Part shown: piece after piece, positions 20,468-27,833 of the stretch
How positions within the stretch are numbered: position 1 is the stretch's first letter
How the letters are laid out: each line of letters starts with the position of its first letter
IMG/VR virus record: IMGVR_UViG_3300049594_000559
Location: 1-35,310 of that record
DNA from: a virus
Taxonomy: Duplodnaviria; Caudoviricetes
Length of the DNA: 35,310 bases
Reading direction: 5' to 3' (one strand)
Notes under the pieces: model-generated
The model's database searches: none
What the model was told of the DNA's origin: nothing
The model's input: only the letters and a program-made list of their open reading frames with translations
Translations under genes and position numbers: made by a program

Positions 20468-20602
20468 ATGTCTTCCATACTCCCCAGTTACCAAAGGTCA
20501 ACAGAGACCAAACGATTTAATGGATACGAGAGTTGTATCGTGTCACAAGACGCGAATACGCTCGGCGGTGCCCATTTAGATCGGCATCCACATCGGAGGT
20601 AA
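20468..20602 (+). CDS. Candidate 44-aa leader peptide (MSSILPSYQR...DRHPHRR)
   Basis: ATG 20468 to TAA 20600-20602, preceded by purine-rich GGAAACGGAA; the stop codon lies inside the antiterminator strand. Confidence 0.55.
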   Translation: MSSILPSYQRSTETKRFNGYESCIVSQDANTLGGAHLDRHPHRR

Positions 20603-20663
20603 CACTGGGCTGTCTCAATATGGACAGTACTAACGAAACAACGTTGGCGAACCCGGTGTTACC
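20598..20663 (+). promoter_or_regulatory. Antiterminator helix of a candidate attenuator
   Basis: GGTAACACTGGG (20598-20609) pairs over 12 bp (one G-U) with CCCGGTGTTACC (20652-20663), the 5' arm of the terminator. Confidence 0.7.
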
Positions 20664-20687
20664 GCAAAAAGTGACACCGGGTTTTTT
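20650..20687 (+). terminator. Intrinsic terminator about 30 nt upstream of the first tRNA
   Basis: AACCCGGTGTTAC-loop-GTGACACCGGGTT stem running into a T6 tract. Confidence 0.85.
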
Positions 20688-20718
20688 CGTGCCTATTTCT
20701 AAGGAATTCCATACAAAC

Positions 20719-20790
20719 GGACTGGTAGCTGAGACGGTATAGCGGCGGTCTGAAGAACCGCAGAGGAGGGTTCGAGCACCTCCCAGTCCG
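20719..20790 (+). tRNA. trnF: tRNA-Phe(GAA)
   Basis: Acceptor GGACTGG/CCAGTCC; anticodon arm GCGGT-CTGAAGA-ACCGC; imperfect T stem. Confidence 0.8.
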
Positions 20791-20798
20791 CTGCTGCA

Positions 20799-20890
20799 AG
20801 CAGCAGAGCAGTAGACAAGAGAAAGTTGACTGTAGAGCGTTGGCAATGCGTCTACGGCGGTCTCTTTTCTAATCGCTACTCTCTGCTTTT
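20799..20890 (+). ncRNA. Unrecognised long hairpin RNA, copy 1
   Basis: AGCAGAG(C)AGTAG pairs with CTACTCTCTGCT leaving a bulged C; motif repeated at 21121. Confidence 0.5.
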
Positions 20891-20953
20891 GGGATCACAA
20901 AAGATCATATGAAAACAAGTGTGCTAGCGGTGCGCACCTACATAACCAACAAC

Positions 20954-21026
20954 GGCTCGTTCGACTTCTGGTGAGGTCACTGGTCTTTCAAGCCAGGCAG
21001 GTCGGGTTCAAATCCAACACGAGTCA
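20954..21026 (+). tRNA. trnE: tRNA-Glu(TTC)
   Basis: GGCTCGT/ACGAGTC; CTGGT-CTTTCAA-GCCAG; GGTTCAAATCC. Confidence 0.8.
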
Positions 21027-21041
21027 CTGACAAATACAAAT

Positions 21042-21109
21042 GGGCTTGCCGACGGGTCGGCGCTTTGACTTGCACTCAAGGCTTCAGGGTTCAACTCCCT
21101 GCAGGTCCA
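21042..21109 (+). tRNA. trnA: tRNA-Ala(TGC), shortened D arm
   Basis: GGGCTTG/CAGGTCC with G3:U70; loop CTTGCAC; T arm CAGGGTTCAACTCCCTG. Confidence 0.75.
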
Positions 21110-21120
21110 CTGGCGGCAAA

Positions 21121-21207
21121 GCCGCAGAGCAGTAGATACGGGAGAGTTGAAAGTAGAAGAGATGGCAAATTTTTCTGCCATCTGCTTTTTACCCACTACT
21201 CTCCGAC
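21121..21207 (+). ncRNA. Unrecognised long hairpin RNA, copy 2
   Basis: GCAGAGCAGTAGA...AGTTGA..GTAGA...TGGCAA...CTACTCTC shared with copy 1. Confidence 0.5.
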
Positions 21208-21211
21208 GATT

Positions 21212-21284
21212 CGGGCAGAGGTGCAGATGGGAGCACGCCTGCTTTGGGAGCAGGAGGATCTCGGTTCGACCCCGAGGTGCCCGA
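21212..21284 (+). tRNA. trnP: tRNA-Pro(TGG)
   Basis: CCTGC-TTTGGGA-GCAGG; CTCGGTTCGACCCCGAG. Confidence 0.85.
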
Positions 21285-25020: not shown

Positions 25021-25058
25021 TAACCGCAGAAGCTCAGTTCGCTGGGCTTCTGCCATAT

Positions 25059-25128
25059 AGGAATGTTCGCCTGGGAGCGGACTCGGCCTCCAAAGCCGAT
25101 GGACAGTGTTCGAATCACTGCGTTCCTG
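25059..25128 (+). tRNA. trnW: tRNA-Trp(CCA)
   Basis: AGGAATG/CGTTCCT, G73; TCGGC-CTCCAAA-GCCGA. Confidence 0.85.
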
Positions 25129-25135
25129 CTGACTT

Positions 25136-25209
25136 GCCGATGTGGCTCGACTGAGAAAGGCACCTGTCTTGTAAACAGGTTCATGCTGGTGCGAATCCAG
25201 TCATCGGCT
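25136..25209 (+). tRNA. trnT: tRNA-Thr(TGT)
   Basis: GCCGATG/CATCGGC; CCTGT-CTTGTAA-ACAGG; T loop TGCGAAT. Confidence 0.85.
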
Positions 25210-25212
25210 CTG

Positions 25213-25285
25213 GCAACTGAACTGCCTGTTTGGATTACATCAACCAACAAAGAAAGTATCTGAACAAATCAATTCGCTCAGTTGC
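25213..25285 (+). ncRNA. Y-RNA-like RNA 3 (minimal, no tRNA domain)
   Basis: AACTGCC-N5-GGATTACAT core; GCAACTGA/TCAGTTGC closing stem; TGTTTGGA/TCTGAACA inner stem. Confidence 0.65.
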
Positions 25286-25332
25286 ATTTACTGATTCGTC
25301 GCAATGGGAAAACCGTTGCGGCGAGTCTTTTC

Positions 25333-25459
25333 GACTGACTGCCAAGTCGGATTACATGTGTCGTGAGTTCGAATCTCATCAGCGTCTGCAAGGATGCTGT
25401 AGCTCAGTTGGCAGAGCAATGTCTAGAACAATCTGATTTTCACTTCGTCAGTCTTTTTT
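25333..25459 (+). ncRNA. yrlA: YrlA-like Y RNA 4 (permuted tRNA-mimic domain)
   Basis: GACTGAC/GTCAGTC stem; T arm GTGAGTTCGAATCTCAT, closed acceptor CAGCGTC/GATGCTG, D arm TAGCTCAGTTGGCAGAGC; U6 tail. Confidence 0.85.
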
Positions 25460-25560
25460 CGAACCAGAATGTAAAAAACTGGTCCTTAGTTACACCGAAA
25501 CAATGAATGAACACGGGGGAAGCGAATCAAGCTAGGGCTTCATTCTGCTTTGCGATTCTC

Positions 25561-25632
25561 GTTCGACTGCCAGTTGGGATTACATCTTTAGGGAAGATGG
25601 CGAAAGCCTTTCTCAACAACCCTTCGTCGAAC
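25561..25632 (+). ncRNA. Y-RNA-like RNA 5 (minimal), directly upstream of rsr
   Basis: GTTCGAC/GTCGAAC stem; GACTGCC-N5-GGATTACAT...CTTCGTC core; GTTGGGA/TCTCAAC inner stem. Confidence 0.7.
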
Positions 25633-25658
25633 AGTTTTTAGTTTAGGAGATCTCTCCA

Positions 25659-27317
25659 ATGGCAAACAAGTCACTATTCGCAAGCATGCTTGGCCGATTG
25701 CCGCAGGCTAACGCGGTCAACGAAGCAGGTGGCCGCGCGTACAAGCTCGACCCGAAGCACGCCCTGGCACAGATTGCCGCTACGGGTACGTTTGGGAACG
25801 CGTTCTACAGCACTGCTGAAACGCAGCTTGACGAAGTGCTGAAGTTGATTGATGAGGTCGACGACAACCAGTACTTGGCGAAGCTGGCACTGTACGCTCG
25901 CGAAAAGGCGTTCATGAAGGATATGCCGGCTGCATTGCTGGTCGCACTGTCGGTTCGGGATACCGAGCTGATGCACCGAGTATTTGATCGCGTGGTCGAT
26001 AACGGTCGCGTTCTGCGCACTGTGTTTCAGATGATTCGATCTGGCCAGTTCAAGAACAAGGCAGGTAAGAGCCGCTTTGGTTTGTCGAGCTCTGTACAGC
26101 GAGCGTTCCAGCGCTGGTTGAACACGGCCTCGGTCGGAAAGCTGTTGAGCGCATCAATCGGTAACGATCCGAGCTTGCGGGACATCCTGCGTATGGCTCG
26201 ACCGACGCCGAAGGATAACGCTCGCCGGGCGATGTTCGGTTGGTTGACGGATAAGTCGATCGACAAGTGGGCGCCGGCAACGGAAGTTGACTTGCCGGTT
26301 GAAGTTCAGGCGCTGATCGCGTACCGAAACTCGGAAAGCGAAGAAGCACAAGCCTTGATCGCTGGTGGACTGGATAACGTCCGCTGGGACTTGCTCGCTG
26401 ATGCTGCCAAGGGACCGAAGGTTTGGGCTGCACTGGCTCGCAAGATGGGTCCGCAGGCATTGCGTATGAACTTGAACACGTTGCTACGACACGATGTGTT
26501 CAACTTAGAACGATTGTCCCAATCGTCCAGCAACATGGTCGAGTACGTCGCAGACCGGATCGCTGACGAGTCGGAGATCCGACGTTCGAAGCAGTTCCCG
26601 TACCAGTACTTCGCTGCGTACTTGAACGCAGATGACAATGTTCCGCAGAAGATCAAGACTGCGCTGCATAAGGCAGCCGAGATCGCTTGTGGAAACGTAC
26701 CGGAGTTGCCAGGTCCGGTTGTTATTGGTCTGGATACTTCTGGATCGATGAGCAGCGCAGTAACGGGACAGCGTGGACACGGTGCAACTTCGAAGATGCG
26801 CTGCATCGACGTGGCAGCACTGTTCGCCGCAGCGATCCTGCGACGCAACCCGGACAGCGTTGTGATTCCGTTCGATACTTCGGCTTACGATGCCAAGATC
26901 GATCCAAACGATTCGATTTTGAGCATTGCTGAACGGTTGGCAAAGTACGGTGGTGGCGGAACAGATTGTTCGCTGCCGCTAGTTGCTGCCAACCAGAGGC
27001 ATGCAAAGCGTAAGTTCGCTGGCGTCGTTCTCGTTAGCGATAACGAGAGCTGGATTGGAACAGGACGGCACGGTTCGACCCGTGTGATGACGGCTTGGGA
27101 AGCCTTCGTTGCCAACCAACGCAAGCTGGCTGGTAAGGAAGCAGCTCCGAAGCTGATCAACATCGATCTGCAGCCGTACCAGACGGTTCAGGCTTGCGAG
27201 CGAGCTGACATTATGAACATCGGTGGCTTCAGTGACTCCGTGTTCAACGTGATCAGTGCGTTCCTGGCCGACAACAACCAGCGATTCGTCGCGGAAGTTG
27301 AAGCGATCGAACTGTAA
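25659..27317 (+). CDS. rsr: Ro60/Rsr TROVE-domain RNA-binding protein
   Basis: N-terminal [16 protein letters not shown], v[28 protein letters not shown] and [16 protein letters not shown]. Confidence 0.95.
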
Positions 27318-27434
27318 ACGCGAGTTGGACTCCGGTCCAACTTCGGTATACTTGAAACTTGGGCACCCGCCGGTCGGAACACGATCAGCGAGTGTTGTTA
27401 TTTGATGAATAGAAACAGCGCGGAGAGACGGTCA

Positions 27435-27833
27435 ATGGAAGAAACAGACGCACCAAACATAAAGCAGGTCATCGTCATGCGACACGACCTGAAGATGCGC
27501 AGAGGAAAGCAGATCGCTCAGGGGGCTCACGCTTCTATGTCGTTTCTTACGCGCAAATTGCAGAGCAAATCATCTATTTGCATGGATGATTTTACGTCCA
27601 ACCAGCAAACCTGGATTATGGGGTCGTTTGCGAAGGTGTGCGTTCGCTGCAATAGCGAAGAGGAACTGATGGCGATTCACGACAGAGCCGTCGAAATGGG
27701 GCTTGAGGTCCACTTGATCACTGACAGCGGCCGAACCGAATTTCACGGGGAACCAACTCGAACTTGTTTGGCTATTGGACCTGATGAAGCATCTAAGATA
27801 GATCAGGTGACGGGCCACCTTGAGTTGCTTTAG
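27435..27833 (+). CDS. pth2: Peptidyl-tRNA hydrolase, Pth2 type
   Basis: KQVIVMRHDLKMRRGKQIAQGAHAS, DSGRTEF and TCLAIGP. Alternative start near 27402. Confidence 0.93.
   Translation: MEETDAPNIKQVIVMRHDLKMRRGKQIAQGAHASMSFLTRKLQSKSSICMDDFTSNQQTWIMGSFAKVCVRCNSEEELMAIHDRAVEMGLEVHLITDSGRTEFHGEPTRTCLAIGPDEASKIDQVTGHLELL

Follow-up and report, generated by a model that had tools for sequence, protein, structure and literature searches.

A predicted ribosome-dependent transcription attenuator ahead of a mobile tRNA array and RNA quality-control genes in planctomycetes

Described systems and the locus

As a rule, long tRNA arrays are cryptic, and only in a single instance is it known how one is controlled, namely by a cyanobacterial repressor. 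Here we analyze an array in the IMG/VR virus record IMGVR_UViG_3300049594_000559 (Caudoviricetes; positions 1 to 35,310, the whole 35,310-nt stretch being referred to as the window), in which tRNA-like genes, Y-like RNAs and genes for an HNH nuclease, the RNA-binding protein Ro60 and the peptidyl-tRNA hydrolase Pth2 follow a short leader open reading frame (ORF) and an intrinsic terminator. L-arrays have been defined as at least 20 co-oriented tRNA genes at a density of at least 2 per kb (PMC4758250), and they are recorded in planctomycetes, with 26 tRNAs in Rhodopirellula baltica SH1 and 23 in Pirellula sp. SH-Sr6A (PMC8421152). The Anabaena array is reported to be induced by translation stress, including ribosome-targeting antibiotics (PMC8421152). 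As far as these sources describe them, the L-arrays and the Anabaena trn operon resemble our locus in being long, co-oriented, horizontally spread and supernumerary, with HNH, RNA repair and translation genes as neighbors, and slipin/Band 7 genes are common to the L-array set and to the cassettes studied here. The Anabaena operon is controlled by a DNA-binding repressor, TrcR (PMC10272220), whereas a cis-acting RNA switch is predicted here; the string "attenuat" occurs 0 times in the main texts of PMC8421152 and PMC10272220. In mycobacterial and mycobacteriophage array units HNH is likewise the commonest gene and cluster C phage arrays have a PTH2-like gene, and the available parts of that account describe no leader control (PMC5966550).

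The closest described control elements are those of vmlR in Bacillus subtilis (PMC9226507) and whiB7/wblC in Actinobacteria (bioRxiv 2023.06.02.543512). According to the accessible portions of these sources, both share an upstream ORF (uORF), an anti-antiterminator, an antiterminator and an intrinsic terminator, and ribosome stalling is predicted to lead to read-through. Like the whiB7 uORF, the leader described here is long, variable and of mixed codon content. Unlike vmlR and whiB7, it would gate non-coding tRNA arrays together with Ro60/Y RNA rather than a resistance factor or a transcription factor, its stop codon itself lies within a covarying helix, and it is predicted from sequence, with no match in Rfam or among GenBank phages. 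No attenuator or uORF ahead of tRNA arrays was found in a literature search that left most subscription papers outside its reach. The parts of the locus are known, and the control element is apparently undescribed.

A conserved leader ORF and terminator precede the array

We consider it probable that in this locus a mobile array of planctomycete tRNAs, joined by RNA quality-control genes, stands behind a ribosome-dependent transcription attenuator, with general translation stress as the foremost candidate trigger. The leader element has the following parts:

20368..20393, + strand: promoter-like motif GAACC-N16-(G/A)TCTA, located 50-80 nt upstream of the leader ATG
20468..20602, + strand: leader ORF of 44 codons and a TAA stop, the predicted ribosome sensor
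20483..20492, + strand: segment 1 (in this leader codons 6-9), which would form the 5' strand of the anti-antiterminator
20598..20609, + strand: segment 2, containing the leader stop codon; its partner is segment 1 or segment 3
20652..20663, + strand: segment 3, shared by the terminator (5' arm) and the antiterminator (3' strand)
20671..20687, + strand: segment 4, terminator 3' arm and U tract

The terminator of the window has a folding energy of -21.5 kcal/mol and a U tract, and the leader region has z = -5.5 relative to shuffles. Searching the stored loci with a terminator pattern yielded 140 matches, and 117 were left after removing duplicates and matches with less than 200 nt upstream. A tRNA lies within 400 nt in 95 of these and is lacking in 8, and the other 14 are not long enough for a call. 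When the 95 were aligned as DNA, the stop codon (TGA 54, TAA 33, TAG 6) occupied one column in 93/95 and the ATG one column in 90/95. The frame from ATG to stop is open in 89 of the 90 leaders with an aligned ATG, across ten length classes of 31-52 codons, and the alternative frames of those 90 leaders are interrupted by stops in 76 and 82. The second set came from whole genomes searched with a model that spans the final 12 leader bases and the terminator, and comprises 90 of the stronger matches rather than a random draw. An ATG ORF is closed in 88 of these 90 versus 13.4 in shuffles (maximum 23), and a tRNA lies within 400 nt downstream in 77/90. Shine-Dalgarno-like purines precede the leader ATG in 71/79 cases versus 30.7.

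The encoded peptide is weakly constrained, with a ratio of nonsynonymous to synonymous polymorphism (pN/pS) of 0.70 over 44 pairs. On this ground a functional leader peptide was rejected; only Arg at position -2 (156/169) and Pro at -4 stand out, and the conserved Arg may be an effect of RNA pairing. We also rejected a "codon sampler", given that the window leader, with 33 distinct codons and 19 amino acids, is 0.4 standard deviations above stop-free shuffles (mean 1.2 over 89 leaders), and a macrolide +X+ motif, which occurs in codons 2-12 of only 17/170 leaders. Ser and Thr make up 36% of codons 2-8 versus 12% elsewhere, an excess partly explained by RNA pairing. A run of one cognate amino acid, as in trp- or his-type attenuators, was not found in the leaders, where the largest share of a single residue is 14% on average.

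The promoter-like motif is present in 114/167 leaders versus 1.2 in shuffles, and the cassette holds a single copy. Genome-wide it is not enriched over the control, and a genome-wide promoter regulon was therefore rejected. The two boxes presumably resemble promoters of extracytoplasmic function (ECF) sigma factors. The accessible part of PMC7826278 offers no motif against which this resemblance could be tested, and a sigma-70 scan gave nothing useful.

Covariation and folding of the alternative helices

The leader stop codon is part of the strand whose partner is the 5' arm of the terminator, and TAA versus TGA in the stop is matched by T versus C in that arm; the middle base of the stop and its partner form G-C in 29, A-U in 11 and G-U in 2 leaders (n=42). 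The antiterminator helix (2:3) is 97.7% paired, with 17 double changes versus 4.5 (0/500 shuffles) and three pairs showing double changes. The support for helix 1:2, which joins codons 5-7 with the bases just past the stop, is weaker (80% paired; 34 double changes versus 14.6; 0/500 shuffles). The terminator helix is paired in 41-42 of 42 leaders per column, with the terminator having served as the search key.

We folded the nascent RNA up to the terminator loop in 42 non-redundant leaders with a ribosome footprint of 31 nt. The antiterminator was predicted in 40-42 of 42 leaders with the ribosome on codons 2-11, and in 20/42 either without a ribosome or with one at codon 21. In the genome set it was predicted in 67/79 with an early stall and in 34/79 without a ribosome, the latter number rising to 56/79 when the body of the ORF was shuffled. 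By these models, the element combines the characteristics of vmlR/whiB7-type attenuators: a conserved translatable uORF, an intrinsic terminator, an overlapping antiterminator, and an anti-antiterminator that would be covered by an early-stalled ribosome. An earlier reading of this DNA, made from the letters alone (the sequence-only reading), had proposed an attenuator and a system silent until translation stalls; the comparative tests of frame and covariation bear out the attenuator, and its layout predicts silence until ribosomes stall.

The following observations weigh against this reading. The leaders are related to each other, so the counts are not independent events, and the TAA/TGA covariation may represent few of them. 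The absence of the antiterminator when the stop codon is covered (0/42 and, in the genome set, 0/79) is imposed by the constraint itself. Stalls in mid-leader leave the antiterminator in about half of the cases (41/89 and 36/79), and in the leader of the window it still reaches 0.8 without a ribosome. In the full-length transcript the terminator is the favored equilibrium structure wherever the ribosome is placed, and the switch must therefore rest on kinetics. The Planctopirus-type arrays L042 and L065 keep the terminator half but not the aligned ORF. Of 30 Ro60 loci with 4 kb upstream, 10 lack tRNA. Separate transcripts may be indicated by stems with U tails after the Y-like RNAs, and are also possible at the spacer behind Ro60 (27319-27400), which may be a terminator or a separate Pth2 promoter. 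This spacer has two hairpins and a TATACT hexamer, is conserved, and was matched in 23 loci, some without Pth2 downstream.

Proposed mechanism

The leader ORF and the terminator likely act as a ribosome-dependent transcription attenuator. In this scheme RNA polymerase would start at the conserved two-box motif. A ribosome at the stop codon would hide segment 2 and the terminator would form (OFF); with no ribosome, segments 1 and 2 would pair and the terminator would form again (mostly OFF). A ribosome held on codons 1-11 would hide segment 1, allowing segments 2 and 3 to pair and transcription to read through into the array (ON). Early stalling would thus remove the anti-antiterminator, the same logic as in vmlR. 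The trigger would most likely be general translation stress, for example ribosome-targeting antibiotics, since the sensing codons are rich in Ser and Thr and include no run of a single amino acid. The Ser/Thr-rich codons 2-8 fit context-specific inhibitors of the peptidyl transferase, and chloramphenicol is described as stalling ribosomes after Ala, Ser or Thr (PMC12121999). The predicted output is a full spare tRNA set together with Y RNAs and Ro60, which would handle damaged structured RNA, and in some copies also Pth2, an RNA ligase, Tpt1 or EF-Tu. HNH likely aids movement of the block, and the benefit would likely fall to the host cell or lysogen.

If this is true, mobile tRNA arrays carry their own built-in stress sensor. 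The predicted attenuator would be a second and portable solution to the control of such arrays, in a different phylum, with ON and OFF predictions at the level of single bases. It would give bacterial Ro60/Y RNA a defined inducing signal that does not involve RtcR, and the leader could offer a broad reporter of translation stress. A cultured planctomycete, R. baltica SH1, has both an array and a 552-aa Rsr (the bacterial Ro60) on record (PMC8421152; PMC4201824).

Distribution of the leader element

The leader is, by model matches, a conserved family in Planctomycetia. The model matches 89/151 genomes of the family Pirellulaceae at E <=0.01 (62 at 1e-5), including genome G001, which has the same prophage and the same cassette as the window. 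In the wider samples it matches 37/151 genomes of the class at 1e-4 and 5/151 of the phylum at 1e-5, both tallies again including G001, and some genomes carry several matches. A strict terminator pattern, of far lower sensitivity than the model, was found in 3/401 genomes of the phylum. Arrays at Ro60 loci whose start is in view open with the leader element, or in L042 and L065 with its terminator half only.

In two loci (L277:428-2571; L332:1344-2581) the attenuator stands straight ahead of a Ro60 or Band 7 gene and no tRNA was called, and in L283:2503-3140 two attenuator matches lie about 560 nt apart on the same strand in a single array. In four metatranscriptomes, contigs of relatives run from the leader through Ro60, and two contigs extend across the terminator; level, ends and strand are not readable from such contigs, they may be DNA, and they were not used as evidence.

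The tRNA array

Two groups of tRNA-like genes follow the leader:

20719..24000, + strand: array of 34 tRNA-like genes from Phe(GAA) to Arg(TCT), including Ile(TAT) and one degenerate gene (ARAGORN, Rfam, folds)
25059..25210, + strand: tRNA-Trp(CCA) and tRNA-Thr(TGT) (ARAGORN)

ARAGORN called 32 tRNAs, all on the + strand. Rfam added Glu(TTC) at 20954-21026, cloverleaf folds added Cys(GCA) at 22709-22781 and a second Met(CAT) at 23396-23466, and a degenerate gene lies at 23149-23222, where relatives read Glu(CTC). The total is 36 tRNA-like genes, one of them degenerate, which cover all 20 amino acids. The 34 genes of the main array fall within 3.3 kb, the median gap between them being 11 nt, which places the array among L-arrays as defined above; the empty site described below, the varied contexts and the several copies in some genomes agree with the patchy, mobile and supernumerary character of that group. 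CCA is found near the 3' end in only 7/32 genes, and host CCA addition would therefore be needed.

Transfer RNAs with the anticodons Ile(TAT) and Arg(GCG) or Arg(TCG) would decode AUA and CGN with no need of lysidine or inosine. Among 31 stored arrays with at least 20 tRNAs, a set that may include one array fetched twice, Ile(TAT) occurs in 20, Arg(GCG) in 20, Arg(TCG) in 19 and Arg(ACG) in 0; the array of the window has Ile(TAT) and lacks CGN readers. In host-type genomes a strict Arg(ACG) pattern was found in 0/5 and a looser pattern gave tRNAs with an ACG loop in 2/5, so that the sequences support the contrast between host and array anticodons only in part.

Two related hairpins of about 95 nt lie between the first tRNAs (20795-20895 and 21115-21208; z -2.7 and -3.7). 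They are found in 14-17 stored loci, some of which are repeats of one genome, are lacking in some relatives, and are possibly small mobile or processing elements.

Y-like RNAs, Ro60 and other cargo genes

The remaining cassette features are the following:

24003..24152, + strand: Y-like RNA 1, YrlA type, T- and D-like arms (Rfam RF02553, 42.2 bits, below cut-off; fold)
24164..24268, + strand: Y-like RNA 2, T-arm only (repeat motif, fold)
24379..25020, + strand: HNH nuclease, 213 aa, two CxxC pairs (PF01844, PF14279; Atlas neighbors all HNH)
25214..25284, + strand: Y-like RNA 3, minimal, no tRNA-like arms (repeat motif D12)
25333..25460, + strand: Y-like RNA 4, YrlA type (Rfam RF02553, 47 bits, below cut-off; fold)
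25561..25638, + strand: Y-like RNA 5, minimal, immediately ahead of Ro60 (repeat motif, fold)
25659..27317, + strand: Ro60/Rsr, 552 aa, TROVE and vWA domains (PF05731, PF25045; Deinococcus Rsr 2nvo, E 3e-19)
27402..27833, + strand: Pth2-type peptidyl-tRNA hydrolase, optional member (TIGR00283, 103 bits, cut-off 82; 2zv3, E 9e-20)

HNH, the TROVE+vWA Ro60 and PTH2 all score above the Pfam cut-offs. Pth2 is a full-length domain over the family cut-off, and its GK, DxG and T positions, which we take to be catalytic, align with 2zv3. The tRNA-like genes, the five Y-like RNAs and the three proteins that the sequence-only reading had placed on one strand were all found again with ARAGORN, Rfam, Pfam/TIGR and folds.

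Planctomycete Rsr and YrlA are already recorded, including the 552-aa RB11421 of R. baltica (PMC4201824). As in described Rsr/YrlA loci, Ro60 here has several Y-like RNAs closely upstream, all five within 4 kb and on the same strand. A single motif, D12, is present in five copies, each at the start of a closing stem. The locus differs from Rsr/YrlA loci in the number of Y-like RNAs, in that three of them have no full tRNA-like domain (both arms are found only in RNAs 1 and 4, a T-arm only in RNA 2, and neither in RNAs 3 and 5), in an altered GNCGAA motif, and in being set within a tRNA array. Only RNAs 4 and 1 match YrlA in Rfam (E 3e-8 and 7e-7), and they stay below the gathering score of 69 bits. 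The Y-like motif occurs in 39/48 related Ro60 loci with 1.5 kb upstream, in at least 2 copies in 33 and never on the opposite strand, and Y-like RNA 3 is matched in 32 stored loci, the best at 96-99%.

The best 79 Ro60 loci show 60-95% identity, and 77 of them are labelled planctomycete. In the 30 Ro60 loci with at least 4 kb upstream, tRNAs occur in 20, at least 8 tRNAs in 13 and HNH in 11, whereas Pth2 is downstream of Ro60 in only 7/66 loci. Conserved co-occurrence, on which the sequence-only reading had staked its proposal, thus holds for Ro60, Y-like RNAs, HNH and arrays, found together in many planctomycetes, but not for Pth2. Other copies of the cassette carry an RNA ligase with endonuclease V, Tpt1/KptA, Band 7 or EF-Tu, in a survey that covered 87 of 160 candidate ORFs. 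Unlike the RtcR-controlled rsr-yrlBA-rtcBA operon, the locus encodes neither RtcB nor RtcR in the 30 window ORFs that were scanned, as had been claimed for the window. RtcB is encoded elsewhere in 5/5 host-type genomes searched, and no attenuator match lies within 1.5 kb of their rtcB genes.

An extra EF-Tu gene is located downstream of a short attenuated tRNA array in L135:4265-5476, a cluster seen in 2 loci. Ro60 of the Planctopirus-type arrays L042 and L065 (about 7000-9100) is preceded by genes for an Rnl2-like RNA ligase and endonuclease V, and the leader there is divergent.

The block is mobile cargo within a prophage

The tRNA and RNA quality-control block is mobile cargo within a prophage. 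The insertion has these borders:

19490..20185, + strand: FkbM-family methyltransferase (Pfam PF05050), the final prophage gene ahead of the insertion
27900..28088, + strand: second copy of the FkbM 3' end, 189 nt, 78% identical, right border of the insertion

In the empty-site phages L364 and L365 FkbM is joined straight to the HNH-repeat gene with no block between; the stretches of the window matched by L364 are 19391-20191 and 27896-29069. Because such phages exist and because the copy of the FkbM end closes the insertion, we take the block to be cargo inserted in the prophage. Public DNA contigs bridge both cassette borders without differences (X4 at 20096-20697; X1 and X3 across 27361-29390), which indicates that the assembly is not chimeric there; the window may itself have been sampled in one of the runs behind these contigs.

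The prophage location holds for the window and is atypical for relatives of the cassette. Genes of the window's phage lie upstream of only 3/36 attenuated arrays with 2.5 kb upstream, and one of the three is a short fragment; the array is found in 0/16 related phage loci with at least 5 kb downstream; and no relatives were found when HNH and Ro60 of the cassette were used as queries against other viral contigs. The description of the cassette as prophage-borne is therefore correct here, given the empty-site phages, and fails as a general statement. Other copies lie in an unrelated phage (G005), in defence islands with serine recombinases adjoining BREX/Pgl, restriction and AbiE genes (G002 and G003), and in an ordinary chromosome (G355). 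The phage of G005 (L220-L224) is a 94-kb provirus in which 36 tRNAs follow a leader of this family and which has its own RNA ligase and DNA polymerase A. Among related loci, arrays lose and gain genes and pick up insertion sequence (IS) elements.

Alternative explanations

The same switch might serve mainly in phage counter-defence, with host anticodon nucleases depleting tRNA, the leader stalling and the spare tRNAs restoring translation. The cassettes in this prophage, in its relative in G001 and in the unrelated 94-kb phage are in favor of this, as are the copies beside defence genes, the array anticodons that differ from host-type ones, and leaders that average 16.4 different amino acids. 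Set against it are the rarity of the window's phage genes upstream of arrays, the empty related phage loci and the lack of HNH and Ro60 relatives in other viral contigs. Lysine tRNA is a common target of anticodon nucleases, and Lys is found in codons 2-12 of only 42/170 leaders; we judge this explanation unlikely. We hold a sensor of amino-acid or charged-tRNA starvation, akin to biosynthetic attenuators, to be just as doubtful. Codons 2-12 of the 170 leaders contain Ser in 154, Arg in 151, Leu in 132 and Ile in 118, AGG and ATA are over-used in leaders though rare in the genes of the window, and the codons of the whiB7 uORF are reported to make it respond to starvation (bioRxiv 2023.06.02.543512). 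However, the leaders lack a single-amino-acid run, RNA pairing constrains codons 5-7, and extra tRNA is no cure for a missing amino acid. Starvation sensing may act beside general translation stress, and both it and counter-defence may work through the same switch.

Control could instead lie mainly at initiation, through a stress ECF sigma factor or a TrcR-like repressor, with the attenuator only trimming leak. The conservation of the two-box motif in leaders and its rarity elsewhere would suit this, as would the use of TrcR by Anabaena, but TrcR is described as restricted to cyanobacteria (PMC10272220) and no regulator gene recurs in the cassettes. We regard this as quite improbable as the main control, although layers of initiation and attenuation may coexist. 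Least probable is a selfish, mostly silent array spread by HNH, in which the terminator would do no more than hold the genes silent and the leader would sense nothing. HNH genes beside arrays are widespread and have been proposed to spread them (PMC8421152; PMC5966550), and the gene turnover and IS elements fit such a view, but silencing alone would not need a kept frame, a Shine-Dalgarno-like signal and covarying alternative helices.

A wider extension of general-stress attenuation is a tentative one, which we favor less than its opposite. The attenuator family would be dedicated to gating tRNA genes and self-contained, with no need of a host regulator, so that arrays would remain both quiet and usable once moved between planctomycete chromosomes, defence islands and phages. 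A phage-borne switch might sense host tRNA-cutting defence as stalling and free a full substitute tRNA set that depends only in part on host anticodon editing (Ile-UAU, Arg-GCG/UCG), and Ro60, several specialized Y RNAs and Pth2 would clear the damage.

Surroundings of the block

A protein-family scan placed phage head and tail genes to the left of the block and ParB and a serine recombinase to its right. The end of the tail module (16694-20185) encodes a Ser/Gly-rich repeat protein, a mannosyltransferase-like gene and FkbM; the glycosyltransferase of this region is common to 41 viral loci, which hints at virion glycosylation. On the minus strand, 28141-33472 encodes a homing-endonuclease-repeat protein, two ParB proteins, a serine recombinase and DUF2924, and DUF2924 and the recombinase are also present beside the cassettes in G002 and G003.

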